From Deltaproteobacteria bacterium (lineage in GTDB: Bacteria > Myxococcota_A > Polyangia > JAAYKL01): a stretch of 64,000 nucleotides of DNA. The notes beneath the pieces were generated by a model. It saw only the letters and a program-made list of their open reading frames with translations. It was not told where the DNA came from and did no database searches. Of this stretch, positions 28,837 through 59,289 are shown piece after piece (the first letter of the stretch is position 1; every line of letters begins with the position of its first letter). The position numbers and the translations under genes were made by a program. The stretch is from contig JAQTNF010000007.1 of assembly GCA_028713995.1 (NCBI GenBank), positions 1,740 through 65,739 on the forward strand. The letters are read 5' to 3'.

Positions 28837-30150
28837 ATGCATAAGATAGACGGGATACTGTGGCTCGGAGCGTTCCTCGGCGTGCTCGTGCTCGCGGGCT
28901 GCGGGGACGAGAGCACCACGGGTGGCAACATCGGCGATGATACGAGCGGGGACTCGGACGCGGACACGGATGGTGACACGGACAGCGACGCGGACACGGA
29001 TGGTGACACGGACGGCGACACGGACACGGATGGTGACACGGACGGCGACAGCGACGCGGATTCCGATGCGGACACAGACACCGACACCGAGACGCAATGC
29101 GTGGACAACGACAACGACGGATGGTGCTCCAGCCTCGACTGCTCGGACACGGACTCCGCGGTCAACCCGGACGCCGACGAGATCCCGAACAACGGGATCG
29201 ACGAAGACTGCGACGGCGTGACAGACGAGGTCGACACCGGACCGATTGAGGACACCGACACCGAGACCGGGCCCATCGAGCAGGACTGCTCGGGGTGCGT
29301 GGGCGTGGGCAACACGCTCGACAACATGCTGTGCGCCATCGACCTGTGCGACTCGAGCACCGTGCTCGGCAACACCTACGCCTCGCCGACCGGCTCGAAC
29401 ACGACGGGAACCTATGCCGCGGTGGCCCGGTTCGGCGACGCCACCAACGATCTGGCGCCCAAGCTCAACGGATCGTACGCGCTCATGGCGAGCGGCACGG
29501 CCACGGGCACAATCCACACCATGCCCATGGGCGGCAACTCAAAGACCGATCCGTTTTCCAAGAACAAGTTCCAGGAGATCTACGACGTGATGGAGTGGAA
29601 GCTGCGGCTCAAGGCGCCCCCGGGCGCCGCCGGATTCAAGGTCAACTACGTGTTCTTCTCCGAGGAATACGACGAGTATGTGGGGTCGCAGTACAATGAT
29701 AAATTCTACATCTTCATCGAGGCGCCGAGCACCAACAACGGCAAGCGCACGGTGATCAACTTCACCAATTGCCGCAACCCGGCCAAGTACAAGGACTTCG
29801 TGTGCGACGGGGCCACGATGGACTACTGCGTGGACGGCCAGTACTACTGCTACATCGCCATCAACACGGCGCTCTCGGAGTGCTGCTGGTACGGCGGATG
29901 CCCCAAGGGCAAGTGGACCACGGACGTCGCCGGGACGGGCTATTCGTGCGCCGCGAACCAGATGATGGACAGCTCGAACACGGGATCGTCCACGGGCTGG
30001 CTCGCGACCGAGTGGGCCGTGCAGCCGGGCGAGGAGTTCAATCTCATCTTCCACGTCCACGACACGTCGGATGAGATCCTGGATTCCGAGGTCATCCTCG
30101 ACTCCTTCCAGTTCATGGGCAAGGTCACGCCCGGCACGCATCCGGATTGA
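28837..30150 (+). CDS. Secreted lipoprotein: poly-acidic DTD repeat linker, MopE-like putative metal-binding cysteine motif, C-terminal choice-of-anchor-L-like domain
   Basis: RBS AAGGAG. Lipobox VLAGC|GDE. About 60 aa of D-T/S/G/A-D repeats. DNDNDGWCSSLDCSDTD...EDCDGVTDE motif. The C-domain segment FKVNYVFFSEEYDEYVGSQYNDKFYIF resembles choice-of-anchor L. Confidence 0.7.
   Translation: MHKIDGILWLGAFLGVLVLAGCGDESTTGGNIGDDTSGDSDADTDGDTDSDADTDGDTDGDTDTDGDTDGDSDADSDADTDTDTETQCVDNDNDGWCSSLDCSDTDSAVNPDADEIPNNGIDEDCDGVTDEVDTGPIEDTDTETGPIEQDCSGCVGVGNTLDNMLCAIDLCDSSTVLGNTYASPTGSNTTGTYAAVARFGDATNDLAPKLNGSYALMASGTATGTIHTMPMGGNSKTDPFSKNKFQEIYDVMEWKLRLKAPPGAAGFKVNYVFFSEEYDEYVGSQYNDKFYIFIEAPSTNNGKRTVINFTNCRNPAKYKDFVCDGATMDYCVDGQYYCYIAINTALSECCWYGGCPKGKWTTDVAGTGYSCAANQMMDSSNTGSSTGWLATEWAVQPGEEFNLIFHVHDTSDEILDSEVILDSFQFMGKVTPGTHPD
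28945..29098. repeat. Tandem GAC-ACG-GAY(-GGY) codon repeat encoding a poly-acidic linker
   Basis: Unit gacacggatggtgacacggacggc is repeated. Confidence 0.8.
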
Positions 30151-30151
30151 C

Positions 30152-30937
30152 ATGACCGAGGCACGCAGAGCGCAAAGCGTCCACTGCGGCGACTGCGGAG
30201 GAGCGCTTGAGAAGGGGCGGCCCAACTGCCCGTACTGCGGCGCGCTCATCGATCTCGTCGATGCGCGGCTGACCGCCTACTGTGGCGAGTGCCTGGCCAT
30301 GTCGCCCGACGGCGCCATGTTCTGCTGCGAGTGCGGGCGAAAGCTCGGCGCACAGGACGCGGGCGTGGAGGAGACGGACTCCACGTGCCCGCGCTGCCAG
30401 GTGCGCCTGCGCAGGCGCGAGGTCGGGCGGCACCGCGCGTTCGAATGCGCCATGTGCTACGGGCTGTTCGTGGGCGTGGACGATCTCGAGCTCATCGTCC
30501 GCGAGCAGGAGGAGCGCGTCAGCGATCCCGGAGCCGCGGGCGGTCCGCAAAGGGCCACTCTCCCGGGCGATCCGGTCGCGTACCTCAAGTGTCCCGTGTG
30601 CGGGACGTCCATGAACCGGCTCAACTACGGCCGGTTCTCCGGCGTGATCATCGACTTCTGCCGCAGGCACGGCTACTGGCTCGACGCGGGCGAGCTCGAG
30701 AAGATCGCCAGGTTCGTGGCCACGGGCGGGCTCGCCAGGAAGTACGAGCGCGAGGTGGAGGAGCTCAAGATGGAGAAGGAGCGCCTCTCGAGCCTGCCCA
30801 CGTTCGGCGAAGCCCCGGGCGCCAAGTACGATCTGCGCGACGACTCGGTCTTCACCGGCCGCGGCCGCGGCATCGGCAGCTTCGGAGACGACATCACGCA
30901 GATCGTGGACATGATCTCGAGCCTGTTCCGGCGCTGA
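30152..30937 (+). CDS. Zinc-ribbon domain protein with C-terminal zf-TFIIB-like finger
   Basis: ATG 1 nt after the upstream stop. Four CxxC pairs (CGDCGG, CPYCGA, CGEC..CCECG, CPRC). C-terminal CPVCGTSM...IDFCRRHGYWLDAGELEKI matches the transcription-factor zinc-finger (PF13453-type). Confidence 0.65.
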   Translation: MTEARRAQSVHCGDCGGALEKGRPNCPYCGALIDLVDARLTAYCGECLAMSPDGAMFCCECGRKLGAQDAGVEETDSTCPRCQVRLRRREVGRHRAFECAMCYGLFVGVDDLELIVREQEERVSDPGAAGGPQRATLPGDPVAYLKCPVCGTSMNRLNYGRFSGVIIDFCRRHGYWLDAGELEKIARFVATGGLARKYEREVEELKMEKERLSSLPTFGEAPGAKYDLRDDSVFTGRGRGIGSFGDDITQIVDMISSLFRR

Positions 30938-30989: not shown

Positions 30990-31751
30990 ATGGTGCGGAT
31001 TCCAAAGCGCAGATCCGCGCTCTTCACGGTCGCCGCGGCAACGGCGCTCGCGCTCGCATGCGGGTGCGGGGCGCCGGCCAAGAAGCACACGACGAGCCCG
31101 TCCGGCCACGCGGCCCACAGAGAGCCGGTGCGCGGCAAGGCGCCGTCCGCGAGCGAGGACACGCGCGCGGCCACGCTCGGCCGGCAGGGGGGCTGGGGCC
31201 TCACGTCGGACAAGGTGCGCGAGGTCTCGCCGCTCGTCGTGAGGGCCGCTCGGGAAAACCGTCTGCCCGAGGATCTCGTCTACGGCATCATCTGGGTGGA
31301 GTCGCGGTTCAATCCCAAGGCCGTCTCGCCGGTGGGCGCGCGCGGGCTCATGCAGCTCATGCCAAAGACGGCCGGTTATCTGGCGGGGCTCATCGACTGG
31401 CGCGGGACACACCAGGAGTTCGATCCGGAGTTCAACATCGCGGCGGGCAGCTACTACATCGCGAGGCTCATCGACGAGTTCAACGGCGACGTGGATCTCG
31501 CGCTTGCGGCCTACAACGCGGGTCCCACCAATGTGCGGCGCTGGATGCGGGGCACGGGCCTGCCGCCGGTCTCGGTCGAATACTTCACGATGGTGCAGAC
31601 CGCGCGGTCGTTCTTCAAGGGACGCACGCCGGACGGACGGCCCGGCGTGACCGACGGGGATCTCGACCGCCTGGGCCTCGCGATTCTGATCGCCGGCCTG
31701 TCGACAAAGGACGTGGGCCTCGACCGGCCCGACGATCCTCACCCGTTCTGA
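30990..31751 (+). CDS. Lytic transglycosylase (SLT domain) with signal peptide/lipoprotein-like N-terminus
   Basis: Catalytic ES motif IIWVESRFNPKAVSPVGARGLMQLMP. AYNAG motif. N-terminal KRR + hydrophobic + CGC. Confidence 0.8.
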   Translation: MVRIPKRRSALFTVAAATALALACGCGAPAKKHTTSPSGHAAHREPVRGKAPSASEDTRAATLGRQGGWGLTSDKVREVSPLVVRAARENRLPEDLVYGIIWVESRFNPKAVSPVGARGLMQLMPKTAGYLAGLIDWRGTHQEFDPEFNIAAGSYYIARLIDEFNGDVDLALAAYNAGPTNVRRWMRGTGLPPVSVEYFTMVQTARSFFKGRTPDGRPGVTDGDLDRLGLAILIAGLSTKDVGLDRPDDPHPF

Positions 31752-31776: not shown

Positions 31777-32184
31777 TCATTCGCCGTCCGTGTCGGGGAG
31801 GCAGATGAGGCAGGGCCACATCTTGGCATAGACGCCGGTCTCGCAGCAGACACGGTTGCCGTTGCACATCATGTCGTCGTGCACGGTTCCCTTCTGCTGG
31901 TCGCAGGCGGGTTGCGACATGCACTCGAATTGGCACTCGGCGGGCCCGGTGTCGCTGTCGCCGTCGGAGTCCGAATCGCCGTCCGAGTCCGAGTCGCCGT
32001 CCGAGTCCGAATCACCGTCGGAGTCCGAACCGCTGTCGGCAGCTGTTTCCGTGCCGGTATCTGTCTCTTCCCCGGTGTCCGTTCCCCCGGCATCCGTGTT
32101 CAATGAGGGGGGGTTGCTGTTGCAAGCAACGATCAGGATTCCCAGAAAACTAACCAGAGCGCAAAAGAACATACCGTGCTTCAT
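31777..32184 (-). CDS. Small secreted lipoprotein with SDSDGD repeat linker and C-terminal Cys-rich knot
   Basis: RBS AAGGAG. Lipobox LIVAC|NS. (SDSDGD)x5. 10 Cys in the last 50 aa. Confidence 0.7.
   Translation of the reverse strand: MKHGMFFCALVSFLGILIVACNSNPPSLNTDAGGTDTGEETDTGTETAADSGSDSDGDSDSDGDSDSDGDSDSDGDSDTGPAECQFECMSQPACDQQKGTVHDDMMCNGNRVCCETGVYAKMWPCLICLPDTDGE
31951..32040. repeat. Tandem 18-nt repeat (gtcgccgtccgagtccga)n encoding (SDSDGD)n
   Basis: Five near-identical units. Confidence 0.8.
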
Positions 32185-33940: not shown

Positions 33941-34052
33941 GCGCGCAAGGGTGCGTCCCTTTGCCCGAACCGGCCGAGAAAATCGTGGCGTATTCGGGCG
34001 CCGTGCGTAAGAATCGACTCGTAATGCCATGAGACACCGTTGGGAGGCGCCC

Positions 34053-37000
34053 ATGTGCCAGGTTCGCGTCATGCTCGGATTGTCCGGTCCGCTGCTTTCG
34101 CTCTCGCTCCTCGGCCTCGCCGGATGCGACCGCGGCCGTGACGGGCACGCGCCCCGCGCCTCGGCGCCCAAACCCGTGCCAGCGACGACCCGCCAGACGC
34201 CGAAGAACTCGAACCGGTGGCTCAACGACGTGCAGGAGCGCATCGCGAACGAGGAGTATCGCGTCGCGCGGCAGGACGATTGGAGCTTCGCCGCCGCGAA
34301 CCGGGCGCACAATCTGCGCGCGCGGTTCCGGGACGGCGCTGCGCGCATCGAGCCGCGCGAGAGCGTGGCCGGCCAGGGACACTGGGCTGCGACGCTCGCG
34401 GTGACCGGGTTCGGCCGCGAGGGCGCCGTGCTGGACGTGGATCGCGGCGAGGCGCGCTCCGGGGCGTGCGACGACAAGGCAGGGCCGGGCGCCACGGATG
34501 AGTGTTTGAAGCGGTTGGAGATCGTTCGGGACGGGCTCGTCGAGTGGTGGGGCAACTGGGTCGACGGGATGGAACAGGGGTTCGACGTGGCCGAGCGGCC
34601 CGAGGGCGTGGGCGAGCTCGCGATCCGCGTGGAGGTCGAGGGGCTCGAGGCCAAGCAGGACGGCCCGACCGGCGCGCTGCTGCGCCAGAACGGCGAGCTG
34701 CGCTTGGCTTACTCGGGCCTGTCTGCCAAGGACTCGGCCGGCAAGGCGCTGCCCGCGCGCATGGCCGTCGGGGCGGACTCGATCCTGTTCTTTGTCGACG
34801 ACGATGACGCAACATACCCCGTCGTCATCGATCCGCTCCTCACCTCGCCCGCCTGGACCGCGGAGAGCGACCAGGCAGGCGCCCAGTTCGGGTATTCGGT
34901 CGCGTCCGCGGGTGACGTGAACGGCGATGGGTTCAGCGATGTCATCATCGGGGCGCCATACTACGACGGCCTGACAGACGAGGGCGCAGCATTCGTGTTC
35001 CATGGATCATCATCTGGCCTTTCGACCTCGGCCAACTGGACCGTGAAGGGCGGACAGGCGAGTGCGCTTTTCGGCAACTCCGTCGCTTCGGCAGGAGATG
35101 TGAACGGCGACGGGTACGAAGACGTCATTGTTGGCGCTTATGCTTTTGACAACGGCCAGACCGACGAGGGCCGCGTCTTCGTCTACCACGGCTCGTCCAC
35201 CGGCCTCTCGACCACTCCAGCGTGGACCGCGGAGAGCGACCAGGCGAGCGCGGAATTCGGAATCTCGGTGTCGTCGGCCGGCGACGTGAATAGCGATGGA
35301 TATGCGGATGTCATCGTAGGCGCACACAAGTTCGCCAACGGCCAGGCCGCCGAAGGCCGAGCGTACGTGTATCACGGCTCGGCTTCCGGGCGGTCAGCGA
35401 CAGCCAACTGGACAGCGGAGGGTGATCAGATCGGCGCACACTTCGGCACCGCCGTCGCGTCGGCAGGAGACGTGAACGGCGACGGGTACACGGACGTCAT
35501 CATCGGCGCTCCTGACTATGACAAAGGAATCACGGATGAAGGCGCGGCATTCGTTTTCCACGGCTCGGCCTCGGGTCTTTCTTCCACATACTGGATCGCC
35601 GGAAGCATGCAGGCGAACTCCAACTACGGCGGCTCCGTCTCGTCCGCCGGAGATGCGAATGGCGACGGGTACGCGGATGTCATCGTCGGCGCTCGAAACT
35701 ACGACAACGGCCAGACCGACGAAGGCCGCGTCTTCTTCTACAAGGGTGGTCCGGACGGCCTCTCGCCGTCCGCGGATTGGACGAACGAGAGCAACCAGGC
35801 GAATTCCGGGTACGGGAAATCGGTCGCCGGGGCAGGGGATGTGAACGGAGACGGATACTCCGACTTCATCGTCAGCGCTCACCGATATGACAACGGCCAA
35901 ACGGACGAAGGTCGGGTTTTCGTGTACTACGGCTCCGCCAGCTCCTTCTCCTCCACCGGTGCCTGGACGGTGGAGAGCGACCAGGCGGAGGCGCTCTTGG
36001 GCAACTCGGTGTCTTCTGCCGGTGATGTCAACGGCGACGGCTACTACGACATCATCATCGGCTCATCCTACTACGACAACGGCCAGACCGACGAAGGCCG
36101 CGCCTACGTCTACTACGGTTCCGCCGCCGGCCTTGCGACGTCTTCCGGTTGGACCGCTGAGAGCAATCAGGCGAACGCGGTGTTCGGATATTCCGTCTCC
36201 TCGGCCGGTGACGTGAACGGCGACGGGTACGCCGACGTCATCGTCGGCGCCGACTATTACTCCAACGGCCAAACCGGTGAGGGGCGCGCCTACATCTATC
36301 ACGGCGCGGCGTCCGGTCTCTCCACCACCGCGGCCTGGAGCGACGAAGGCAACGAGGCCAACGCGCTCTTCGGAAAATCCGTATCCGCTGCCGGGGACGT
36401 GAATGGCGACGGCTACGGCGATGTCATCGTGGGTGCGCCTTCGTACGGCAACGGTCAATCCGGTGAAGGAAGAGCGTTCGTCTACCATGGATCGACCTCC
36501 GGTCTGTCGGCCACACCCGACTGGACAGCGGAGGGCGACCAAGTCAACGCATGGTTCGGCTTCTCCGTTGCCGCTGCAGGGGATGTGAATGGCGATGGGT
36601 ACGGCGATATCATCGTAGGCGCCAATCAATACGACAATGACCAAACCAACGAGGGCCGGGCGTTCGTGTTCCACGGTTCTGTTTCGGGACTATCGGCCGC
36701 TGCCGACTGGACCGCTGAGAGCGATCAGGCGGACGCGGAATTCGGTCGCTCCGTGGCGTCTGCCGGGGATGTGAACGGCGACGGCTACGGTGATGTCGTT
36801 GTAGGAGCACCCTACTACGACAACGGCCAGACCGACGAGGGCCGCGCATACGTCTATTATGGCTCCGCCACCGGGCTCGCGGCGACCGCGAACTGGATCA
36901 AGGAGAGCGATCAGCCGAACTACGCGTTGGGGTATTCCGTTTCCTCCGCCGGCGACGTGAACGGCGACGGATATGGGGATGTCATCGTCGGCGCCCCAAA

Positions 37001-40000
37001 TCCAACGGGGAATGGTAACAATAACGGCTTCGCATATGTTTTCTACGGCTCGGCCTCGGGGCTCGGAGTTGCGGCTGATTGGACCGCCAGTGTGAATCCT
37101 GTCAATTTCGGCATGTCGGTCGCTACTGCAGGAGATGTCAACGGCGACGGGTACAGCGATGTTGTCATCGGCTCGCCCCGTTACGGAAACGGCCAGACCC
37201 TCGAGGGCCGAGCGTACGTGTACCATGGCTCTGCCAGCGGATTGGCGACAACCGCCGGTTGGGGTGCCGAGAGCAACCAGGCGAGCGCCTCCTACGGCTG
37301 GTCCGTTGCATCCGCCGGGGACGTGAACGGGGACGGTTACTCGGATATCGTTATTGGTTCCTATATGTACGACAACGGCCAGTCGAACGAAGGCCGCGCG
37401 TTCCTCTACTACGGCAACGGCGGTGCGGGCCTCTCCGTTCGCCCCCGGCAGTTCAACGCCGACGGCGACCCGCAGATGCAGGCGTTCGCCAAGGCCGAGA
37501 CGGGCAACATCCAGATCCAGATACCGGCGCGCTCCGATCGCGGCCGCACCAAGGTCAAGCTCGAGTACGAGATCCAGCCGCACACGACGCCGTTCGATGG
37601 AACGGGGCTGCGGCGGTCGGCGAGTTGGACCGACACGGGCAACCCCGCGGACGGCGTGAACGATCTCACCGAGACCGTGAGCGGGCTTTCGGGAGGCGAC
37701 TACCACTGGCGCGCGCGGCTCGTCTACCACCCTTCCTCACCGGGCGGTGGCGAGCACTCGCGATGGATCGTGTACGACAGGATCGGCTCGTGGCAGCCGG
37801 ACTTCCGCATCTCGGTCGAGAAGAAGCCCGACGGCGAGACCTGCGGCGGCGCCGGCGAGTGCCTGAGCGGCAACTGCGTGGCGGGCACGTGCTGCTTCGA
37901 CCCGTGCGCGACGCCGCCGGATTGCAAGGTCCCGCCGGCCACCTGCCCGGGCGGCACGGCCTGCTCCTACGAGAACGCCGCGGACGCCACCCAATGCCTC
38001 GGCGGAGGCGGCCTGTGCAAGGGCGGCGAGTGCGTGACGAACGAGTGCTATCTCGGCGCGTGGTACGCGAGCGGCCAGCCCACGGAAGGCTGCAAGTTCT
38101 GCGACCCGGCCACGAGCCGGACCGCGTGGACCGACCGTCCCAACACGTACCCGGACTCCTGCGGCACGGCCGCCTGCCCGGCCGACGCCTGCTCCGGCGG
38201 AGCGTGGCTCGACTACGGCGCGTCCTGCCAGCTCACGTGCAACGGCTTCGGGATCTGCGGCTCGTCGTGCGCGTGCACGCCGGCCACGACCGCCTGCTCG
38301 GCCGCAGGCTGCTGCCAGTCCGCTTGCGCTCCGGCCACGGGCTGCTACACCACCGCCGGCTCGTGCGGCGGGACCGACACGTGCAACGCCAACGTGCTCA
38401 CGGTGGGAAACTCGTGCACCGGCTGCGCGCTGAACGGCGCCATCGGCGCATGCGCGGGCGGCGCGACCTACACATGCAACTCGAGCGTGCACCCCACGTG
38501 CGAGAGCCGCTCGTGCAATGGGGCCACGTACTATTGCACGAACGGGGGCGGCATCTGGCAGTGGCGCACGGGCACGGGCTGCGACGACGGGGCCCTGTGC
38601 ACGTACGGGGACGCGTGCGGCGGCGGGACGTGCAGCGGCACGGCGGTGAGCTGCACGGACACGGCGTGCGTGGACCGGACGTGCAACGGGACGAGCGCCT
38701 GCGCCGAGAGCTACATGAGCGGGTCGACCTCGTGCGGCGCCACGGCTTGTCCCGCGGACTCGTGCACCGGGCTGACGTGGCACAACTACGCAGCGACCTG
38801 CACGCGCTATTGCAACGGGTCGGGGAACTGCAACACCTGCTCCTGCGCGCCCGTCGACGTGACGTGCACGGCCGGCGGGTGCTGCCAGGCCGCATGCGAT
38901 GCCGCGACCGGGTGCTCGAGCGCAGCCGGATCCTGCGCGGACGTATGCGGCGCGACGACGCTCGAGGTGGCGCGCACCTGCTCGGGGTGCGGGGCGAACG
39001 GCGCCTCGGGCACATGTGCCGGCACGACGCACGCCTGCAGCGCGGGGAAGGCCTGCGCGCAGGTGACCTGCGGCGGAACGGCGTACACCTGCACGAACGA
39101 CGGCGGCACGTGGCAGTGGCGCGCGTCGGCCGCCTGCAACGACGGGAACGCCTGCACTTACAACGACACCTGCTCCGGGGGCGCGTGCCAGGGGCAGCCC
39201 ATCACGTGCACGTCGGACACGTGCATGACGCGGACGTGCAACGGCACCTCCACGTGCACCGAGAATGCGGCCATCCTCGGCACCCCCTGCGGGACCTCGG
39301 CATGCCAGGCGGACGCGTGCGACGGGCTTGTGTTCGAGAACTACCCGGCGACGTGCAACCGAACCTGCGATGGCGACGGCACGTGCCAGACGTGCACGTG
39401 TACGGCGACAACGACGAGCTGCGCGGCGGGGTCGGGCTGCTGCACGGCGATCTGCAACCCGACGACCGGGTGTGCAACCCAGCCGGGGACTTGTGGCGGG
39501 GGAGGGGACACGTGCGGCGCCGAGGTCCTGACCGTCGGACAGGTCTGCAACGGGTGCGGCTCAAATGGCGCGGAAGGGACTTGCGTCGCGGGCGGGACGT
39601 TCACGTGCAGCGACGCGGTGCACGACGAGTGCGAGCTCGCGAGCTGCGGCGGGAACCCGCTCTACTGCGTGGAGGACCTCATTGACGGCTGGGGCTGGAA
39701 CACGGATCCGGCCTGCGACGACGGCGACGCGTGCACCCACGACGACGCATGCGCGGGTGGCGCCTGTGCCGGGACGCCCATGGAGTGCGTGTCGGACGCC
39801 TGTAAAACGCGGGCCTGCAACGGCACATCCGAGTGCGACGAGCAGGACGTGGACGCGGGCACGCCGTGCGGCGCGGAAGACTGCCCCGCAGACTCGTGCG
39901 GCGGGACGACATGGAGCGACTACCCGGCCGCGTGCGAGCGGGCCTGCGACGGCGCTGGTGCGTGCGCGGGTTGCGAATGCCAGCCGATGACCGACGCGTG

Positions 40001-41777: not shown

Positions 41778-41793
41778 GAGAGGAGTGGGACGC

Positions 41794-46926: not shown

Positions 46927-48648
46927 TCAGTATCGACGGGGCCCGTTTCGCACGGTTTGGGCGGGCCTCATAACGAGCATGGCCTTCTGGCGCGCGCGCT
47001 CCCTCGGGTCGGCCACGAACAGGGGGCTGCCGTCCTCGTCGACGCGCGCCGCGTACAAGGCCGCGGCCAGGGTGCCCGGCAGCGGGATGAAGCCTTGAAC
47101 CTGCCGCAGGCGCTGGCCGCGTCGTGCGAGCCAGGCGCCCGTGAGATCCGCGTCCGCGGCCGCGCAGCCCGGGAAGCCGTAGATGAAGTAGGGGACCAGG
47201 TACTGCTGCTTGCCCGCGCGCCTACTGGCCTCGAGGAAGCGGCGCTCAAACTCCTCGAACAGACCGATCTCGGGCTTGCGCATGCGGCGAAGGACGTCCG
47301 ACGCCACGTGCTCGGGCGCGACCTTGAGGTGGCCGCCCGTGTGGCGCGCCGCAATCGCCTCGACGAAGCGCGGATCGCGCAGGGCGAGGTCGTGCCGGAT
47401 GCCGCTCGCGAGCAGCACGCGACGCACGCCAGAAAGGCGCGAGGCGTCGTCGAGCACGGCGAGGAGCGGACCGTGGTCCGCGGACAGGTGGCGGCAGATG
47501 GCCGGATGGAGGCACGAGGATCTTCGGCACGCGCGGCAGCGCTCCCTGGCGCTGGTGACCGCCGAAAAGGCGTTGGCCGTGGGCCCGCCCACGTCGGAGA
47601 TCGTGCCCTTGAAGCCCGCGAAGCGCGCGAGCGCATGGATCTCGTCGAGGATCGAGGCGGCCGAGCGGAAAGAGACGACCCGTCCCTGGTGCACGGCGAG
47701 CCCGCAGAACGAGCATCCTCCGGGACAGCCGCGGTGAGAGATGACGGACCAGCGCACGGTCTCGAGGGCCGGCACGGGCTCCCGGTACGAGGGGTGCGAG
47801 GTGCGCGAGAACGGCAGCGCGAAGATCCGATCCAGCTCATCGAGGTCGACGTCGGGCCTCGGCTCGGCCACCACCCACCCCTCGGCGTGGCGCTGCCGCA
47901 CCCGGCCCGCGAAGAACGGCCTCGAGGTCGCTTCGAGGGCCTCGGTCGCGGATACGAGGAGCCTCAGATCCGCGGCCACGTCCTCGTATCCGGGAAGCTC
48001 CACGTCGACGCCGGGAACGGGCACAGGAGGATCCCGCGTGAGACGCGCCGTGCCTGGGATGCCGGCGAGGTCCCGGCCGGCCGAGAGCCGCGCCGCGATC
48101 TTGAGCACCGGCGCCTCGCCCGCGCCGTAGACGAGCAGATCCGCGCGCGAGTCCACGAGGACCGAGCGCCGCACCGCGGCCTTGCGGGGATCGAAGTAGA
48201 CGAAGCGTCGCAGGCTCGCCTCGATGCCGCCGAGCACCACGGGCAGGCCCGGGAAGGCCTCGCGCACGCGGTTCGCGTACACGATGGTCGCGTTGTCGGG
48301 ACGGTCGCCGCCCCGGCCGCCCGGCGCGTACGCGTCGTCGCGGCGCCTGCGCATGTCCGCGGTCCAGTTGTTGACGATCGAGTCCACGGCCCCGGCCGTG
48401 ACCCCCGCGAACAGGGCCGGCCGCCCGAGCCGCGCGAAGTCGGCCGTGGAGCGCGCGTCGGGCCTCGCCACGATGCCCACCTTGTACCCCGCGGCCTCGA
48501 GCACGCGGCCGATGACCGCGGCGCCGTGGCTCGGGTGGTCGAAGTAGGCGTCGCCCGTGACGAGCAGCACGTCGAGCTCGCGCCATCCCCGCGCGTCCAT
48601 CTCGTCGCGGGTCATGGGCAGGAGGGGGCTTGCGCGCCGCTCCGTCAC
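46927..48648 (-). CDS. ygiQ: YgiQ-family radical SAM protein (UPF0313)
   Basis: N-terminal YgiQ domain (MTRDEMDARGWRELDVLLVTGDAYFDHPS aligns with the E. coli YgiQ start). CPGGCSFC radical-SAM motif. ATGA overlap with the upstream gene. Confidence 0.8.
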   Translation of the reverse strand: MTERRASPLLPMTRDEMDARGWRELDVLLVTGDAYFDHPSHGAAVIGRVLEAAGYKVGIVARPDARSTADFARLGRPALFAGVTAGAVDSIVNNWTADMRRRRDDAYAPGGRGGDRPDNATIVYANRVREAFPGLPVVLGGIEASLRRFVYFDPRKAAVRRSVLVDSRADLLVYGAGEAPVLKIAARLSAGRDLAGIPGTARLTRDPPVPVPGVDVELPGYEDVAADLRLLVSATEALEATSRPFFAGRVRQRHAEGWVVAEPRPDVDLDELDRIFALPFSRTSHPSYREPVPALETVRWSVISHRGCPGGCSFCGLAVHQGRVVSFRSAASILDEIHALARFAGFKGTISDVGGPTANAFSAVTSARERCRACRRSSCLHPAICRHLSADHGPLLAVLDDASRLSGVRRVLLASGIRHDLALRDPRFVEAIAARHTGGHLKVAPEHVASDVLRRMRKPEIGLFEEFERRFLEASRRAGKQQYLVPYFIYGFPGCAAADADLTGAWLARRGQRLRQVQGFIPLPGTLAAALYAARVDEDGSPLFVADPRERARQKAMLVMRPAQTVRNGPRRY

Positions 48649-50102
48649 GCGAGCCTCCTTCCCTGGCGCCTGGGATAGCGCGCCTTGCGCGGGGTGCGGG
48701 CGCGTTTCAGATCCTCATCGACGGCCTTCCGGGCGAGCGCGGGATCGAGGCCGCGCGCGTTCTCGAGATAGAGCCGCAGGGTCGAGGCAAGGAGCTTCTG
48801 CGACGGCGCGTGGGTCCCGCGCATCTTTTGCCACAGGAAGTCGGCGAGCTCCATGTAGCGCGCGAACGGTGAACCGCCTTCGCGCACGAGCGCGTCGGAT
48901 GTCGGGAAGCCGCCGTTGTTGTGCACGAGATCGAGGGAGCGCGCGGTGCGCTTCACGCGCTGCATGGCGTCGAAGCCGATGGTCGAGGTCTCCAGGATCT
49001 CGTACGGCGCGGACGGGCTGTAGACCATGCGGAACGGCCCGTCGTGCCGCGCGATGGGCGCGCCGCGAAGGCGTTTCAGGATGCCGAGCTGGATCTCGTG
49101 GGGCCCCGCGTCGAACAGGCGATCGAACCCCGCGGCCAGGCTCTCGAGCGTCTCGCCGGGCAGGCCGGCCACGAGGTCCGCGTGCACGTGGGCGTTCGTC
49201 TCCTTCGCGAGCAGGCGCACCGTCGCGAGGGCCTTGTCGGGATCCTGCCTGCGACCCACGCGCGCCGCGACCTCCGGGTCGAGCGTCTGGATCCCGGCCT
49301 CGAGCTGCAGCGTGCCGGGCAAGAAGGCCGCGATGAGCGGGAGCAGGGGCTCAGGCAGATGGTCGGGCACGAGCTCGAAGTGCACGTGGGCGCCCGGCTC
49401 GAAGCGCTCGAGGAAGAAGCGCAGGATGGCCGGAGTGACGGCCAGGTGCAGGGCGCGGTCCACGAACTTGAAGCGCCGCGCGCCGCGGGACCACAACCCT
49501 TCCAGCGCGCCAAGGAGCTTCGCCTCGGGGACCCTGCGCACCTTGTCGTCGAGCGCCGAGAGGCAGAACTCGCAGGCATACGGGCACCCGCGCGACGCCT
49601 CCACGTAGACGTTGCGGTGCGCGAGATCCTCGGCGTCGTACAGGTCGTAGGGCAAGGCGAGGCTCCCGAGATCGGGCGGCGGGGCCTGAACGACGCGCGA
49701 AGCGGGCCGCTCGCCCTTGAGCAGCTGCTCGCACAGGACCGCGAACGCGAGCTCGCCCTCGCCCTTGATCGTGTCGTCCGCGAGCGACACGATGCGCTGC
49801 CCTTCGGTCTCGTGGCTCACCTCGGGTCCGCCCAGGACCACGGCCACGTCCGGGCGCAGGGCCTTCAGCCGGGCAACGAGATCGAGCGCCGCGTCCGCGT
49901 TCCACACGTACACGCCCAGGCCCACCACGCGCGGGCGCTCGCTGAGGATGCGCTCGAGCATGTCCGAAGGGCGATCCGCGAGGGTGAATTCCAGGATGCG
50001 CGCGCGCCCGGCGAGCGGGCCCAGGTTGGCGAGCAGCAGGCGCGAGGCGAGGCTCGCGTGGCTGTACCTGGCGTTCACCGCGGCGATGACGATGTCGCTC
50101 AT
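48645..50102 (-). CDS. B12-binding-domain radical SAM protein
   Basis: N-terminal MSDIVIAAVNARYSHASLA, typical of the B12-rSAM class. CPYACEFC motif. Start overlaps the tatD stop. Confidence 0.8.
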   Translation of the reverse strand: MSDIVIAAVNARYSHASLASRLLLANLGPLAGRARILEFTLADRPSDMLERILSERPRVVGLGVYVWNADAALDLVARLKALRPDVAVVLGGPEVSHETEGQRIVSLADDTIKGEGELAFAVLCEQLLKGERPASRVVQAPPPDLGSLALPYDLYDAEDLAHRNVYVEASRGCPYACEFCLSALDDKVRRVPEAKLLGALEGLWSRGARRFKFVDRALHLAVTPAILRFFLERFEPGAHVHFELVPDHLPEPLLPLIAAFLPGTLQLEAGIQTLDPEVAARVGRRQDPDKALATVRLLAKETNAHVHADLVAGLPGETLESLAAGFDRLFDAGPHEIQLGILKRLRGAPIARHDGPFRMVYSPSAPYEILETSTIGFDAMQRVKRTARSLDLVHNNGGFPTSDALVREGGSPFARYMELADFLWQKMRGTHAPSQKLLASTLRLYLENARGLDPALARKAVDEDLKRARTPRKARYPRRQGRRLA

Positions 50103-51759: not shown

Positions 51760-53994
51760 CTATTTCGTTTTCCCGAATTTCGCCCGATACGCCCAGGTGA
51801 GGATCGTGTCGCGGTACGCGGTCAGGTCGTCGACGACGTCGGGCCGCGAGGCGGACAGGTCCTTTCGCTCCAGGGGATCCGCGCGGAAATCGAAGAGCTG
51901 CTGCAGGCCGCTCCAGCCCATCTGATGGAGCACGAAGTCCCCCTTGCGCACGGACACCCGCGCGAGGGGCTCCTTGTCCTTCGCCACGTACTCGGGCAGG
52001 AAGAACTGCTGCATGATCGGCCGGCCGTCGTCGCGCCTGCCCTGGATCTGGGGCAGGAGGCTGTTGCCCGCGAGCTGGGGAGTCCTCAAACCGACCATGT
52101 TGAGCAGCGTCGGCATGACGTCGATGTCGCTCGCGACCTGCCGGATGCGACGCCCGCCCGAGTAAGGGCTCCAGAAGGCCATCGGGATCCACGTGACCGC
52201 CGTGGACAGATCGTAGTCCTGGTGGAACTTGCGGTGCGGCGGATCAAAGGCCTGCCCATGATCGGCCGTGAGCGCGACGACGTATGGGCGGTCGCCGAGG
52301 CGCTGCGCGACGGCCGCGAGCAGCTTGTCGACGTACTTGTCGACGGTCCTCACCTCCGCGTCGTAGATGTCCGACTCGGTCCCGCCGGGGAACGGCTCGA
52401 CGCCGGGCGCGAGCCTGTGGGGATAGTGCGCGTCCGTGTAGTGGACCCAGAGGAAGAACCTGTCCTTGGCCGCGAGCTTGTCGAGCCAGCCGATGGCCGC
52501 CGTCGTCACGCCCTCCCCGCTCTTGTGGCGCTCGTCCTTGTTCACCGCCGAGGAGTCCACGGTGCCGAACCCCCGGTAGAGCCACCTGATCTTCTTCGCG
52601 AAGTAGTCGTCCGGCGCCACGGCCACGGTCTCGTAGCCGGCCTTGCCGAACACGTCGGCCATCGTCTTCTGGGTCCCGCGCCAGCCCGACGTGGGGCGGC
52701 GCGACGGCGTCCGCGCGATCTGGCTGGCGTGCAGCGAGGTCATGATCGACGGGAAGCTGAGCCGCGTGGAAGGACCCTCGCTGAACGCGGCATCGAACAC
52801 GGCCGCCGACCTGGACCGCTCGACGAGGAGCGGCGTCGTGGGGCGCTTGTAGCCGTAGAGGCTCATGTGCATGGCCGAGAACGCGTCGACCGTGACGAGG
52901 ATGACCGGCATGGCCCGCGGTGTCGGGGTGGCCGGATAGTCGTGACGGCCGGGCCTCGCCAGGGGCGACTTGATGAGCGCGCCGTCGCGGCCGTTGCAGT
53001 CCTGATCCACGCCGTCGCCCGGGATCTCCACCGCGCCGGGGTGCACCGCCGGGTTCAAGGGGGCGCAGTCGCCCTGGCCGAACCAGACCGAATAGCCGTC
53101 CCGATCGATGTCGAACAGGGCCATGGAGGCGCGGGAGATCGGGGTCAGGGGGCCCGAGGCGGAGGCGACGAGGATGTCGGCCCCGACGAACGAGCGGGGC
53201 AGGACCGCGGACGTGAGGAGGCCGGCCGCGAACACGAGGGCCCAGGCCGCGCCCGCGATCCTGCGTCCGATCCTTCCCAGGGGGAAGCGCCGTCGCAGGA
53301 AGACGAAGAGCGCGAAGAGCGTGAGCCCGCCCGCCGAGACGAGCGGCGCCCGCCAGGGCACGAGCGAACCGACGTTTCGCCACAGGACGGCCGTCGCGAT
53401 CGCCGCAGCGAGCGCGACCATTCCGACGAGCGCCGCGATGACCACGGCAGGGGCGGGCGGCTTGCGGACGAGGCCGGCGAGGAGGGTGCCCGTGCGGCTC
53501 CACGCGGGCCACAGGAGCCCGGTCGCGAGGAACGCGCCGACAGAAGCGGCGAACGCGAGCACGGCCATGAAGAACGGCGTTTGTACCGCGACCACGATCT
53601 CGTCGAGGACCGCGAGCGCCGCAAGGGAGGCCGCCGCGAACCAGAGCGCGAGGGCGGCGAGGCGCGCGATGAAACGCCCGCGCACGTGCGGGTCGGCGGA
53701 CCACAACCAGCCGCGCGCCGAGAGCCACTTGAGGGAGATGAGCTCCTGCGCCGGAGCGCGGCCGCAAAGGTACGTCGCGAGCAGGCCCGCGGGAATGATC
53801 GCGCAGAGCGCCGCCGCCCCGTACAGAAATGCCGAGATGAGCACCGCGCAGGCGATGATCGCCGGGCGGGCGCCGTCCTGCACGCCGTCGACGACGAGGG
53901 CCACGAGCTCGGCGACGAAGAAGGCCGAAAAAAGGCGCAGGCTCCACGCGGTCGCGAATCGCAGGTTCCGGATCACGGCGGCATCATTCCTCAT
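51760..53994 (-). CDS. Sulfatase/alkaline-phosphatase-superfamily membrane protein (LtaS/EptA-like transferase) with a MopE-like metal-binding motif
   Basis: N-terminal 5+ TM helices. Periplasmic sulfatase-fold domain (VILVTVDAFSAMHMS ... TADHGQ). Motif GDGVDQDCNGRDG. Start set at MRNDAAV; the ORF-track start is 54243. Confidence 0.65.
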   Translation of the reverse strand: MRNDAAVIRNLRFATAWSLRLFSAFFVAELVALVVDGVQDGARPAIIACAVLISAFLYGAAALCAIIPAGLLATYLCGRAPAQELISLKWLSARGWLWSADPHVRGRFIARLAALALWFAAASLAALAVLDEIVVAVQTPFFMAVLAFAASVGAFLATGLLWPAWSRTGTLLAGLVRKPPAPAVVIAALVGMVALAAAIATAVLWRNVGSLVPWRAPLVSAGGLTLFALFVFLRRRFPLGRIGRRIAGAAWALVFAAGLLTSAVLPRSFVGADILVASASGPLTPISRASMALFDIDRDGYSVWFGQGDCAPLNPAVHPGAVEIPGDGVDQDCNGRDGALIKSPLARPGRHDYPATPTPRAMPVILVTVDAFSAMHMSLYGYKRPTTPLLVERSRSAAVFDAAFSEGPSTRLSFPSIMTSLHASQIARTPSRRPTSGWRGTQKTMADVFGKAGYETVAVAPDDYFAKKIRWLYRGFGTVDSSAVNKDERHKSGEGVTTAAIGWLDKLAAKDRFFLWVHYTDAHYPHRLAPGVEPFPGGTESDIYDAEVRTVDKYVDKLLAAVAQRLGDRPYVVALTADHGQAFDPPHRKFHQDYDLSTAVTWIPMAFWSPYSGGRRIRQVASDIDVMPTLLNMVGLRTPQLAGNSLLPQIQGRRDDGRPIMQQFFLPEYVAKDKEPLARVSVRKGDFVLHQMGWSGLQQLFDFRADPLERKDLSASRPDVVDDLTAYRDTILTWAYRAKFGKTK

Positions 53995-54088
53995 TTTCCC
54001 GGTGGGCACAACAAGCCCAGGAACAATCCCTGACCGACGGTCCGCGATAAGATAGAATGAGATGTACGCGCAAAAGGAGGGACGACGC

Positions 54089-54844
54089 ATGAGGAGGCTC
54101 GTTTCGGTTCTGGTCGCGTTCGCGGCTCTGTCGGGAGCGGCGTTCGGGTGCGACGGCGGCAAGGGGGACGGCGCGCTCGCGTCATTCTCGGGCAGCGAGT
54201 GCAAGAAGGACGGGTACGAGGGACTGTTGATGCCCCTGCTCACTTTGCCGAGCAGCGGCGGCTACGACGGGTTGCAGTGCATCTCGTGGAAGCGCGCGGC
54301 GGACGGGACGCTCGAGGTCGACCTCGTCAACTTCCCTGGAGCGTGTGGGGCCCGGTACGAGGGCGAGGCCGCGCTCGAGAACGCCCACACGCTGCGGCTC
54401 GCGGCGCTGAACCCGAGCTGCGAGATCGCGTCGTGCGGATCGTGCATCTACGACTGGTCGTACGAGGTCGAGGGCGTGGCCGCGGACGCGGACTTGAAGC
54501 TCGTCATGGAGGAGAACGCGTGCCCCGACGGCGAGGAAGGCGCCAGGGTGGACGAGGCGACCATCCCCAAGGCGCGCCTGTCCGCGGGCATCATGTGCCG
54601 CTACGTGGACAGCGGGGTCATGGAATGGGTCGCGGGCTGCGGCGCGCTGCACCTGCCGTGCGGGACGGGCAGCGGCATGTGCCCGGAGGAGCCCGTGCCC
54701 TGCCAGGGCGACCTCGTGTGCAACGCCACGGGCGTGGGGAGCGACGAGGTGTGCATGCAGCCGTGCTCCACGTCGTCGCAATGCCCCCTGCCCGACGTGC
54801 TCACGTGCGACGGCGAGGTCTGCCGCCTCACCGAGACCTGGTAG
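54089..54844 (+). CDS. Cysteine-rich lipoprotein
   Basis: RBS AAAGGAGGG. Lipobox AAFGC|DGG. 24 Cys. Confidence 0.6.
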   Translation: MRRLVSVLVAFAALSGAAFGCDGGKGDGALASFSGSECKKDGYEGLLMPLLTLPSSGGYDGLQCISWKRAADGTLEVDLVNFPGACGARYEGEAALENAHTLRLAALNPSCEIASCGSCIYDWSYEVEGVAADADLKLVMEENACPDGEEGARVDEATIPKARLSAGIMCRYVDSGVMEWVAGCGALHLPCGTGSGMCPEEPVPCQGDLVCNATGVGSDEVCMQPCSTSSQCPLPDVLTCDGEVCRLTETW

Positions 54845-57587: not shown

Positions 57588-57663
57588 GGGCGACCCGAAA
57601 CTAACCCGAATCCGCGGGGATGGGGAGGCCTATCCGCAGGCAGTGCCAGATCCCTTCTATGAC

Positions 57664-59289
57664 CTACTTGCGCCACACCTCGATGATGTGCGTGGGGGGG
57701 CCTGACGGGACGGTGACCGACGCGACGCGGCCCTTCCAGGACACCGTTTTCGGCGCGGCCGGCATCCCGTCCACCGTGATCGTGGAACCGGCCGGGAAAT
57801 GGCGGGCCGGGATGTACATCTCGCACGGCCCGGACGACCCGTTTTCGGTGAACGAAACCGTGAACATCCCCAGGGTCTGGTTGAAGTTTGTGACGAGCGG
57901 CGCGCCGGGGATGGCGCGCGCATACGGCCGGTCCACCCCGGCGACAAGCCAGGTGAGCGAGCCGTCGTCGTCGAGCAGGCTGTGGCTCTTCTCATCGTCA
58001 CGACCGTACGACCAGTACATGCCGCTCGCGAACCAACCGTCGAGCGCCTCGTACTGATCCCCCAGGAACGTCTTGCCGAGCACCGTGTCCCGGGGCACGC
58101 CGAACTCGCCGAGCCAGAGTGGCATCTTGAGGCGCAAGGTGTCTTCAATCATCGACTCGAACGCGTTGAAAACGTTGTCCACGTCGATCTCATAGACATG
58201 CGTGGCCTCGACGCCGGTCCCATAGTAGTGCGGAGCATAGACGAGGCCGTCGACCGCGAAGTTGGGCAGGGCCGTCGCTTTGCCGGAGTTGCGCATGCTG
58301 TTGGGCTCGACGAACATCAGCTTCCTGGGTGAAATCCCGCGCAGGCGGGTGATGATATCCTCATAGAACGGCGCCAGGTGCTGTTGATCGAAATGGGCGA
58401 GTGCAGCCGAGCCCCAGGACGGCTCGTTGTACAGATCGAAGCCGATGACGGCCGGACGGTCCTTCACGGCCTCGGCCAGACGCGCAAACGATTCGATGTA
58501 GTGGTCGCGCAACTCGGGCATGGCGAAAAATCGATCATAACAGGCCATCACTTCCTTCGCGAAGTAGTTGAGGGCCCATGGCTCCTTGGGAACGTAGGTC
58601 GCGTAGTATTCCTCCAGGCAGGCCCAGCGCGGCGCGCCGTCCCCCCAGAAGCCCCGGCCGAAGAGATCCTGGTGCATGTCCAGCACCACCCACAGGCCCG
58701 CGGCGGCCAGCCGATCGACCCACTCGACCACACCGGAAATGTACTGGTCGTTGAATTTCCCTTCCTCGGGCTCGATGGCCTCCCAGAAGACCAGGAAACG
58801 AACGGTATTGAAGCCCCAGGCCACCATGTTCTGGATATCGGCGTCGCTGGCCGCCGGAAGGAAATCGGGCGTGTACTTGGCGTCGCCGCTGAAGTTGACA
58901 CCGCGCAGGATGACGGTGCGGCCCTGCATGTCCTGGAGCCAAATGTCGGCGGTCCAAAGCAGTTCGTCGTTCCCGTCGCCGCCATCCGCCCCGCCATCGT
59001 CTACGCCGCCCGTGTCCGTGTCCGTGTCCGCATCGCCATCCGTGTCGGCGTCCGTGTCGGCGTCCGTGTCGGCGTCCGTGTCGGTGTCTGTGTCCGAATC
59101 CGCGTCCCCGCTGGTGGTGTCCGTGTCGTCGCCGGTGTCCTCGCTGGTGGTGTCCGTGTCGTCGCCGGTGTCCCCGCTGGTGGTGTCCGTGTCGTCGCCG
59201 ACGGTTTTAATCCCCCCCTCGCAGCCGAGCAGCCCCACGGTCAATACCGCGAGACCTGTCCTCGACAACCGATGATTTTTCATCCGCAT
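57664..59289 (-). CDS. Glycoside hydrolase family 5 lipoprotein with poly-acidic DTD linker
   Basis: Lipobox LLGC|EGG. About 70 aa of DTD/TSGD repeats. GH5 catalytic acid/base in DLYNEPS and nucleophile in LWLGEFG. Confidence 0.8.
   Translation of the reverse strand: MRMKNHRLSRTGLAVLTVGLLGCEGGIKTVGDDTDTTSGDTGDDTDTTSEDTGDDTDTTSGDADSDTDTDTDADTDADTDADTDGDADTDTDTGGVDDGGADGGDGNDELLWTADIWLQDMQGRTVILRGVNFSGDAKYTPDFLPAASDADIQNMVAWGFNTVRFLVFWEAIEPEEGKFNDQYISGVVEWVDRLAAAGLWVVLDMHQDLFGRGFWGDGAPRWACLEEYYATYVPKEPWALNYFAKEVMACYDRFFAMPELRDHYIESFARLAEAVKDRPAVIGFDLYNEPSWGSAALAHFDQQHLAPFYEDIITRLRGISPRKLMFVEPNSMRNSGKATALPNFAVDGLVYAPHYYGTGVEATHVYEIDVDNVFNAFESMIEDTLRLKMPLWLGEFGVPRDTVLGKTFLGDQYEALDGWFASGMYWSYGRDDEKSHSLLDDDGSLTWLVAGVDRPYARAIPGAPLVTNFNQTLGMFTVSFTENGSSGPCEMYIPARHFPAGSTITVDGMPAAPKTVSWKGRVASVTVPSGPPTHIIEVWRK
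58995..59205. repeat. Tandem repeats (12-nt gtccgtgtcggc x3; 30-nt gctggtggtgtccgtgtcgtcgccggtgtcc x3) encoding the acidic linker of the GH5 lipoprotein
   Basis: Perfect and near-perfect units read directly from the sequence. Confidence 0.85.

Follow-up and report, generated by a model that had tools for sequence, protein, structure and literature searches.

The question raised by this locus is why several otherwise unrelated exported proteins carry the same kind of acidic run. The window analyzed here is a stretch of 64,000 nucleotides (positions 1,740 to 65,739, forward strand, of contig JAQTNF010000007.1) from the Deltaproteobacteria bacterium assembly GCA_028713995.1, which belongs to the class Polyangia of Myxococcota_A in the GTDB lineage. 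Runs of Asp alternating with Thr, Ser, Gly or Ala had been noticed in five of its genes, namely those for a choice-of-anchor-L lipoprotein (28837-30150, +), a 135-amino acid (aa) lipoprotein (31777-32184, -), a giant FG-GAP protein (34029-41777, +), a 353-aa Cys-rich protein (45759-46820, -) and a lipoprotein of glycoside hydrolase family 5 (GH5; 57664-59289, -). A six-frame scan of the entire window (at least 8 Asp per 20 aa) detected exactly six Asp-rich tracts, spanning 28.9-59.2 kb and all located in the coding frame of these five open reading frames (ORFs); there is no seventh tract anywhere in the 64 kb, and none of the cytoplasmic proteins of the window contains one. All five ORFs show a GC content of 0.79-0.90 at third codon positions (GC3) versus 0.45-0.62 at second positions (GC2), and all are supported by homologues or by Pfam or NCBIfam domains. 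Thus, the recurrence of Asp-rich tracts in five exported proteins, as proposed in an earlier note on this DNA, is borne out by six in-frame tracts in genes with a clear coding signature.

The six tracts are 25-77 aa long and consist of 43-50% Asp, the rest being Thr, Ser, Ala and Gly with few exceptions (among these, Thr and Ser lead with 57 and 43 codons, respectively), and they carry a net charge of -0.43 to -0.50 per residue. Nearly all Asp residues lie on a single parity (24 of 25, 13 of 13, 15 of 15, 16 of 16 and 24 of 24), so the repeat unit is the dipeptide Asp-X (hereafter D-X). The number of 20-aa windows that pass the Asp threshold is 18-49 per protein, compared to a maximum of 18-23 over 2000 within-protein shuffles, and in the 135-aa protein the observed 18 windows merely equal the shuffle maximum. 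Because the tract itself raises the Asp content, this shuffle is a weak null model, and the case that the tracts exceed chance expectation is carried by the parity test together with the cross-genome data described below. Lipoboxes were called by rule (a basic n-region, a hydrophobic core and [LVI][ASTVI][GAS]-C) and read L-A-G-C, I-V-A-C, L-L-G-C and L-A-G-C in the genes starting at 28837, 31777 and 57664 and in the giant gene, respectively; the gene at 45759 has A-P-G-C, which departs from this rule. Four of the tracts begin 8-28 residues past the predicted lipobox Cys, and the other two are C-terminal. The statement that the run follows the cleavage site directly was therefore wrong: the N-terminal tracts start 11, 28, 9 and 8 residues past the Cys in the choice-of-anchor-L, 135-aa, 353-aa and GH5 proteins, respectively.

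At the DNA level, the best arrays reported by Tandem Repeats Finder (TRF) are 3.5 copies of a 30-nt unit at 92% match (choice-of-anchor-L gene), 2.9 copies of a 33-nt unit at 96% (GH5 gene) and 3.8 copies of an 18-nt unit at 94% (353-aa gene), and the remaining arrays match at about 66-88%. In three tracts, perfect tandem repetition extends over at most 60, 46 and 39 nt, and in the remaining three over only 15-22 nt; unique codon variants interrupt every tract of the window. The perfect or near-perfect tandem units that had been ascribed to each run are thus present in about half of the tracts (the 92-96% arrays) and not in the others. GAT accounts for 25% of the Asp codons in the tracts versus 21% in the background, and Ser is encoded both by TCN (31 codons) and by AGC (12 codons). 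This background-like GAT usage and the two Ser codon families suggest that it is the amino acid pattern that is maintained rather than the DNA repeat as such. Recent duplications of units are present, in agreement with the slippage-prone character suggested previously; however, the codon heterogeneity is considerable, and the tracts are not simple perfect microsatellites. In the window, they are heterogeneous enough for unique assembly.

The same architecture recurs far beyond the window. The closest relatives of the window proteins are 60-67% identical and come from bins of uncultured Myxococcota, Polyangia and 'Deltaproteobacteria'. From a scan of species-representative genomes, we collected 77 related loci (L001-L077; 1.13 Mb in total) that contain 152 Asp-rich tracts, 110 of which are D-X tracts under a stricter definition. 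By the strict rule, a lipobox precedes 78 of these 110 tracts, and inspection adds most of the other 32, for a total of about 90%. The gap between the Cys and the tract has a median of 14-15 residues (interquartile range about 11-18), and the D-X tracts are from 11 to 145 aa long. Among 125 tracts in the related set, 124 lie in ORFs of at least 100 aa and are read in the Asp frame. About 35% of the predicted lipoproteins in these loci (25% when the choice-of-anchor-L family is left out) carry a tract, and predicted lipoproteins constitute about 10% of the ORFs, these shares being rough given the crude ORF calling. Database searches with the signal peptide plus tract as the query retrieved hundreds of lipobox-containing D-X proteins of 72-1067 residues. 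In 61 of these, at least 15 unrelated Pfam families are represented, and most have no known domain; the attached domains include LTD, Lcl_C, YHYH, the RCC1 propeller, peptidase M28, alkaline phosphatase, FGE-sulfatase, sulfatase, GH43 and AhpC. The segment between the Cys and the tract contains no conserved motif across 164 D-X lipoproteins.

These data support the view of the tract as a portable linker, considering the at least 15 Pfam families to which it is attached, the tract-free homologues of the GH5 protein and the variable tract lengths in the choice-of-anchor-L family (see below). Its description as an N-terminal module applies to the approximately 90% of the tracts in the related loci that follow a lipobox but not to those found at C-termini and between domains. 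The expectation that the repeat number varies is borne out between sister genomes: orthologues from sister bins with domains 82-95% identical have tract lengths of 75 versus 103, 23 versus 33, 51, 43 and 59, 31 versus 37, and 37 versus 31. The X residues differ between such orthologues as well (DSDGDSDSDG versus DSDSDSDSDS), with the Asp alternation kept.

Their composition, periodicity, position, portability, rapid turnover of both length and X residues, and predicted disorder make it likely that the D-X tracts are polyanionic, intrinsically disordered tethers or stalks of exported lipoproteins. Among the candidate roles, that of a spacer or stalk is the best supported, on grounds of analogy and predicted disorder. 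AlphaFold models point in the same direction. In the choice-of-anchor-L protein (modelled from a 47-sequence alignment), residues 24-90 have a predicted local distance difference test score (pLDDT) of 37-50 and no secondary structure, whereas from aa 141 the scores are mostly 82-99, dipping to 47 near aa 351-360; in the 135-aa protein, the tract scores 50-58, again without secondary structure, and the Cys module 81-89. In many exported lipoproteins of the clade, a (D-X)n run, with X being Thr, Ser, Ala or Gly, lies between the predicted lipidated Cys and the first folded domain, typically over 25-80 and up to about 145 residues, and is separated from the Cys by a non-repetitive segment of about 10-18 residues. 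With roughly one negative charge per second residue and no hydrophobic or basic residues, collapse or folding would be prevented, and the resulting extended, compaction-resistant polyelectrolyte stalk could keep the domain soluble and distant from the anionic membrane surface while presenting no sites for trypsin-like or chymotrypsin-like proteases. The tract might also serve as the long disordered N-terminal linker that outer-membrane lipoproteins of Escherichia coli need for efficient Lol-dependent trafficking, and its carboxylate array would inevitably bind Ca2+ and Mg2+. Tract length would be set by gain and loss of 6-33-nt codon units, with selection presumably acting on the alternation of Asp with a small polar residue rather than on the exact sequence. 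Tracts at C-termini or in inter-domain positions are likewise consistent with generic use as an extracytoplasmic linker.

The closest known parallel to the D-X tracts is the Ser-Asp (SD) repeat R region of the staphylococcal Clf/Sdr adhesins. The only NCBIfam alignments to the tracts are with the SD-repeat regions of SdrC, SdrD, ClfA and ClfB; the whole-family models failed (14-32 bits against cut-offs of 999-2500), with the SD region alone being aligned, and none of the five translations contains LPXTG. Both the SD region and the D-X tracts are encoded by short tandem codon units, and the 18-nt unit GAC-TCG-GAC-TCG-GAC-AGC at 46623-46691 fits the staphylococcal consensus GAYTCNGAYTCNGAYAGY. 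All five proteins have a Clf/Sdr-type alternating Asp-X array with high negative charge, which is a mechanistic resemblance and not family membership. The SD region is found in Gram-positive bacteria, is C-terminal, adjoins the LPXTG wall anchor and spans the peptidoglycan, whereas the D-X tracts belong to Gram-negative Myxococcota, are N-terminal next to the lipobox Cys, and have mostly Thr, Ala or Gly besides Ser in the X position. The likeness is therefore convergent and not homologous, the Myxococcota tracts and the staphylococcal stalks having reached the same dipeptide-repeat solution. The Ser-Asp stalks of SdrC, SdrD and SdrE have a net charge per residue of -0.41 to -0.48, similar to that of the D-X tracts, and analytical ultracentrifugation, small-angle X-ray scattering and circular dichroism showed them to be disordered and highly extended chains in which electrostatic repulsion opposes compaction; they form a stalk between the anchor and the functional domains, as proposed here for the D-X tethers (PMC10367597). 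The resemblance is also an annotation trap: in automatic pipelines, such proteins (the protein P0271 and NCBIfam matches) receive the names of staphylococcal adhesins purely because of the acidic repeat.

The other instructive comparison is with the linkers of E. coli lipoproteins such as RcsF, Pal and NlpD. [quoted passage not shown] Like the D-X tracts, these linkers follow the sorting residues and precede the globular domain. The choice-of-anchor-L and 135-aa proteins, with about 120 and about 60 residues, respectively, between the Cys and the folded part, appear to have linkers of this class (more than 22 residues, predicted to be disordered). Unlike the D-X tracts, the E. coli linkers are neither repetitive nor polyanionic; furthermore, the role in Lol trafficking has been shown in E. 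coli only, and the sorting rules of Myxococcota differ. Lineage-typical inter-domain linkers of low complexity and variable length, reused on unrelated exported enzymes, are also familiar from secreted glycoside hydrolases, where they are rich in Pro/Thr or Ser/Thr and, in contrast to the D-X tracts, neutral and often glycosylated. A further possible parallel would be acidic Gly/Asp/Ser linkers on lipobox proteins of haloarchaea, although the papers on such proteins that we consulted say nothing about the composition of linkers.

The individual acidic ingredients have been recorded before. No other bacteria are as enriched in low-complexity regions as the myxobacteria, and Asp makes up 15% of the residues in these regions compared to 6% in the bacterial background (PMC6821194). 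The supplement of Ntountoumi et al. 2019 lists an Enhygromyxa salina chitinase with (GD)n at residues 31-61 and haloarchaeal DTDTDSD tracts, as well as cytoplasmic ribosomal proteins of Haliangium with DS tails, which represent a different context from the exported D-X tethers. That work is a compositional catalogue and draws no link to lipoprotein signal peptides, D-X periodicity or a clade-wide tether. In the open-access literature, we found no description of a clade-wide lipobox plus (Asp-X)n tether that sits at a fixed offset from the Cys, is reused across protein families and evolves through turnover of codon units, and nothing specific on linkers of Myxococcota lipoproteins that are acidic or rich in Asp. 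Each component is thus known by itself, namely the acidic stalk of dipeptide repeats, the disordered linker of lipoproteins and the Asp-rich low-complexity region of myxobacteria, and the D-X tether is not a new molecular machine; as a real, lineage-wide linker convention across uncultured Myxococcota, the D-X spacer is apparently undescribed.

Several other explanations of the tracts have to be weighed against the tether. A dedicated Ca2+- or mineral-binding module, acting as a stiffened stalk, as a bridge to lipopolysaccharide, exopolysaccharide or mineral, or as a cation store, is possible but, on balance, doubtful. The five proteins contain 7, 3, 2, 1 and 1 copies of DxDxDG, which forms the core of many Ca2+ loops, and in an extended chain the alternation sets every carboxylate on the same side; in addition, the tract of the choice-of-anchor-L protein is followed by a MopE-type 'putative metal-binding motif', and acidic low-complexity clusters are known to bind cations (PMC6821194). 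However, no thrombospondin type 3, EF-hand or RTX model of Pfam or NCBIfam matched any of the five proteins at E<=0.01, the X position, including the Gly of DxDxDG, swaps freely between orthologues, and tract length is unconstrained over the range from 11 to 145 aa; binding would be of the non-specific polyelectrolyte type, which is compatible with a stalk rather than an alternative to it. A function in sorting is suggested by the lipoprotein export signal (LES) of Bacteroidota, where surface exposure and packaging into vesicles require no more than two acidic residues close to the Cys (PMC5080379; PMC6222051, PMC10319031). The D-X tracts, acidic and N-proximal as they are, might be the Myxococcota counterpart that directs lipoproteins to the surface or to outer-membrane vesicles, all the more so as Asp or Glu is found at +2 in 31% of the D-X lipoproteins versus 11% of the tract-free ones (about 42% versus 8% in the loci alone). 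Nevertheless, this explanation is unlikely: the LES is short and strictly positional, with 2-4 residues fixed at +2 to +6 (PMC5080379), whereas the D-X tracts comprise 25-145 residues, those of 30-145 aa being far longer than a signal requires, start at about +10 to +29, and are also C-terminal and inter-domain. The window tracts begin 8-28 residues after the Cys, the +2 to +6 residues that precede them (GDEST, NSNPP, VVSQA and EGGIK) share no motif, neither these nor DRGRD at the same positions of the fifth protein include K-(D/E)2 or S-D-D-D-D, and the lack of a conserved Cys-to-tract motif in the 164 proteins also argues against a signal. Another model comes from staphylococcal SD repeats, in which GlcNAc is attached by SdgA and SdgB (PMC3794999) and shields the repeats from proteolysis (PMC10367597); Ser and Thr between the Asp residues could likewise be modified to form a protease-protected glycan brush. 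Thr and Ser are indeed the commonest X residues, but Ala and Gly replace them freely and no glycosyltransferase adjoins any of the five genes, so that an O-glycosylation array seems very unlikely.

The remaining alternatives concern the repeats themselves. If GAC-rich hexanucleotide repeats simply expanded in tolerant disordered linkers, the tracts would be a largely neutral by-product of slippage. The recent in-frame duplications (the 33-nt and 30-nt arrays), the fast length turnover between sister genomes, the restriction of the trait to one lineage with a recent gain in the GH5 protein, and the X codons RSN (ACN, AGY, GCN and GGN), which are mutational neighbours under the genetic code, are all in line with such a process. 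Slippage accounts for the turnover but not for the confinement of the tracts to export or for the conserved parity of Asp: Asp is retained at alternate positions despite background-level mixing of GAC and GAT and the use of two unlinked Ser codon families, the tracts are confined to exported proteins, are about 90% located just past a lipobox and are nearly always in the Asp frame of long ORFs, with none in the cytoplasmic proteins of the window, and both tracts of the 353-aa protein are kept in an orthologue that is 62% identical. We therefore consider a mainly neutral origin rather improbable. As for the possibility that the repeats were collapsed, expanded or joined into chimeras during assembly, at least four contigs of related loci (L009, L041, L057 and L076) end inside a D-X tract, and the absolute tract lengths in bins are accordingly uncertain. 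However, over 70 independent assemblies and hundreds of database proteins share this architecture, the longest perfect repeat in the window is 60 nt with unique codon variants breaking every tract, and all tracts are in frame with conserved flanking domains, so that we give an artefact practically no weight and exclude it as an explanation of the existence of the tracts.

Some observations weigh against the tether interpretation or limit it. All relatives of the window proteins come from metagenome bins, and the contig ends within D-X tracts imply that tract lengths in short-read bins are uncertain and that some of the length differences are possibly technical. Given that E. coli tolerates neutral GS linkers, the strong preference for Asp points to an additional function outside the stalk model, for instance in cation binding, charge or sorting. 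Finally, the window encodes lipoproteins with short or non-acidic linkers (the SLT transglycosylase at 30990-31751 and the products of 54062-54844 and 6383-6616), and therefore the tether is not needed for lipoprotein biogenesis itself. The predicted lipoprotein encoded at 1971-3512 has a weaker Ser/Gly/Asp/Thr-rich linker. It is conceivable, although we deem it improbable, that the tethers label lipoproteins to be displayed outside the outer membrane or loaded into vesicles and collectively form a polyanionic surface layer bridged by Ca2+ and Mg2+. If so, this layer would parallel teichoic acids but consist of protein, with a length tunable for each gene through codon-repeat turnover, and the D-X tether together with the Cys-proximal segment of about 10-18 residues would be a clade-specific device of uncultured, possibly predatory Myxococcota.

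The combination of a lipobox with (Asp-X)n is recognisable as a hallmark of exported lipoproteins in a large branch of uncultured Myxococcota. It can flag secreted proteins that lack known domains, and it explains spurious annotations such as 'SdrC/ClfA-like' or 'surface protein G' as well as contig breaks within repeats. D-X repeats repeatedly break assemblies of Myxococcota bins. The D-X lipoproteins also amount to a natural experiment on what a lipoprotein tether needs, with ordinary linkers replaced by a strong polyelectrolyte whose charge pattern is kept while its length drifts, and they make testable the effects of linker charge on Lol trafficking, on surface exposure or vesicle loading, and on cation binding.

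The choice-of-anchor-L lipoprotein (28837-30150, +) starts with a signal peptide ending in the L-A-G-C lipobox (28837-28902), the Cys of which (Cys22) is invariant in the 47-sequence alignment. The D-X tether (aa 34-83; 28936-29085) contains 25 Asp in 50 residues, with a net charge per residue of -0.50, and is followed by a MopE-type Cys/Asp motif (aa 101-131; PF11617, 32.7 bits) and a choice-of-anchor-L beta-sandwich domain (29137-30150 together). The latter assignment rests on NF038133 (49.8 bits against a cut-off of 27, E=2.9e-13), and the fold gives weak matches to beta-sandwiches of carbohydrate-binding modules, MAM domains and gingipain adhesins (cleaved-adhesin). We identified 428 database homologues, and nearly every full-length one has a lipobox and then a D-X tract of 10-80 residues. 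Choice-of-anchor-L lipoproteins are strongly expanded in related bins (e.g., binchicken_co129_650, BLK3-3.bin.217 and CSMAG_306); one bin has 11 choice-of-anchor-L loci, and tandem paralogues are found inside single loci among L001-L077. In the window, the PF11617 motif is present not only at 29137-29229 (+) but also in a sulfatase-domain protein (51760-54243, -), and in the related loci the MopE-type motif recurs as 'DNDCDG...DEP' segments adjoining D-X tracts.

The GH5 lipoprotein (57664-59289, -) begins with a signal peptide and the L-L-G-C lipobox (59221-59289, Cys23). Its tether (aa 32-108; 58966-59196) consists of three 11-aa units DDTDTTSGDTG followed by (DT/DA)n and, besides the 33-nt array, contains 6.8 copies of a 12-nt unit at 82%. 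The remainder of the protein (57664-58965) comprises a GH5 catalytic domain (PF00150, 91.7 bits against a gathering threshold of 23.5) and an endoglycoceramidase-like GH5 C-terminal domain (PF18564, 39.1 against 22), which places it in GH5. The endoglycoceramidase equivalog NF051847 scored 148 bits, below its cut-off of 700, and we do not assign that function. The best 120 of the 253 GH5 homologues, which were inspected, are mostly Myxococcota lipoproteins with linkers of 5-20 residues, and none of those with a recognisable signal peptide has an acidic run of more than 10 aa after the Cys. The 77-aa tract of the GH5 protein was thus gained in this lineage.

In the 135-aa lipoprotein (31777-32184, -), the signal peptide with the I-V-A-C lipobox (32122-32184, Cys21) is followed by a T/E/G-rich stretch and then by the (DSDSDG)n tether (aa 50-78; 31951-32037; 4.6 copies of an 18-nt unit at 87%). 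The C-terminal part (31777-31950) is a six-Cys module (C-x3-C-x6-C...C-x6-CC), delineated by alignment with P0256, P0290 and P0278, with a W-P-C-L-I-C tail. A Cys-knot, as suggested previously for this protein, was not recovered: a Foldseek search against the Protein Data Bank (PDB) yielded nothing significant, the best match being a beta-defensin with E=7. Thus, of the different domains said to be attached to the tracts, the choice-of-anchor-L and GH5 domains and the Cys-rich duplication (described below) hold, whereas the Cys-knot is no more than a suggestion. The six-Cys unit (31831-31950 in the window) appears to be a mobile module of about 35 residues, C-x3-C-x6-C-x~12-C-x6-CC, which is also present in P0256, P0290, P0278, P0343, the N-terminus of P0025 and L038 (around aa 2100 of the +1 frame), and which stands alone or, upstream of choice-of-anchor-L domains, is flanked by D-X tracts on both sides; no Pfam family describes it, and no fold in the PDB matches it significantly. 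A W-x-C-L-I-C motif near the C-terminus (MWPCLICLPD, 31777-31830) is shared with P0250, P0251, P0260, P0266 and P0277, and examples in small lipobox plus D-X proteins from other metagenomes include AGWKCLICSF, MWNCLICPNN and TWKCLICDDFG. These proteins might represent a family of small, lipopeptide-like products that contain Cys. No gene for a modifying enzyme adjoins that of the 135-aa protein.

The 353-aa protein (45759-46820, -) has a signal peptide with an atypical candidate lipobox, A-P-G-C (46752-46820, Cys23), in which Pro at -2 is outside the PROSITE-type rule; its full-length orthologue P0291 (62% identity) has a canonical L-P-V-G-C. The N-terminal tether (aa 33-72; 46605-46724) includes the 18-nt array mentioned above, with the unit GACTCGGACTCGGACAGC, and precedes two copies of a Cys-rich domain of about 110 aa (45876-46604; 43% identity in a self-BLAST comparison, E=6e-33), the homologues of which have in common the pattern 'PGGYC...DCR..EGY.C'. 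A second D-X tract is C-terminal (aa 316-340; 45801-45875), and from it 12-nt repeats encoding (D-G/A-G-F) run to the stop codon. Both tracts are kept in P0291, with different sequences. Directly upstream of this gene, 107 bp away and on the same strand, there are two radical-SAM genes (46927-50102, -), one of the YgiQ type (Radical_SAM_N) and one B12-binding with DUF4080, which are probably a coincidental housekeeping context.

The giant protein (34029-41777, +; 2582 aa) contains 14 FG-GAP repeats (E=2.8e-120), encoded with a 186-nt period in 11.6 copies according to TRF. Its signal peptide and L-A-G-C lipobox (34029-34127, Cys33) are not followed by a D-X tract; the tract of this protein (aa 2485-2544; 41481-41660; TRF matches of 68-88%) sits between the last folded region and a 38-aa tail that is rich in Gly, Thr and Asp (41661-41777) and ends in GSHGCGCSVIGA and the stop codon. 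The translation suggests the succession of FG-GAP repeats, approximately six large Cys-rich repeats, a possible pre-peptidase-C-terminal-like region and the acidic tract. MYXO-CTERM, which is defined by Gly-Cys, a transmembrane helix and an Arg cluster at the extreme C-terminus, was considered for the tail and rejected, given that there is no hydrophobic helix, no Arg or other basic cluster and no model match at E<=1. The tail does contain the Gly-Cys core of a MYXO-CTERM-like signal, and in P0283 a D-X tract is followed by GCGC, a helix and RRR; the tail may be a truncated or variant C-terminal sorting signal, in this case on a protein that also bears an N-terminal lipobox. The ORF that follows the giant gene (41785-42756) encodes a separate tetratricopeptide repeat (TPR) protein with its own signal peptide.

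A dedicated gene cluster was considered and rejected, as the five tract genes are scattered among unrelated genes, those between them coding for a zinc-ribbon protein, the SLT transglycosylase, TonB, the TPR protein, an S49 peptidase, the two radical-SAM enzymes, the sulfatase and a membrane protein. The GC content of the window is about 52-73% per 2 kb, mostly 65-72%. A low-GC island at 4001-6400 (52% versus about 68% elsewhere) encodes a possible lipoprotein with a weak glycerophosphodiester phosphodiesterase match and could be horizontally acquired.

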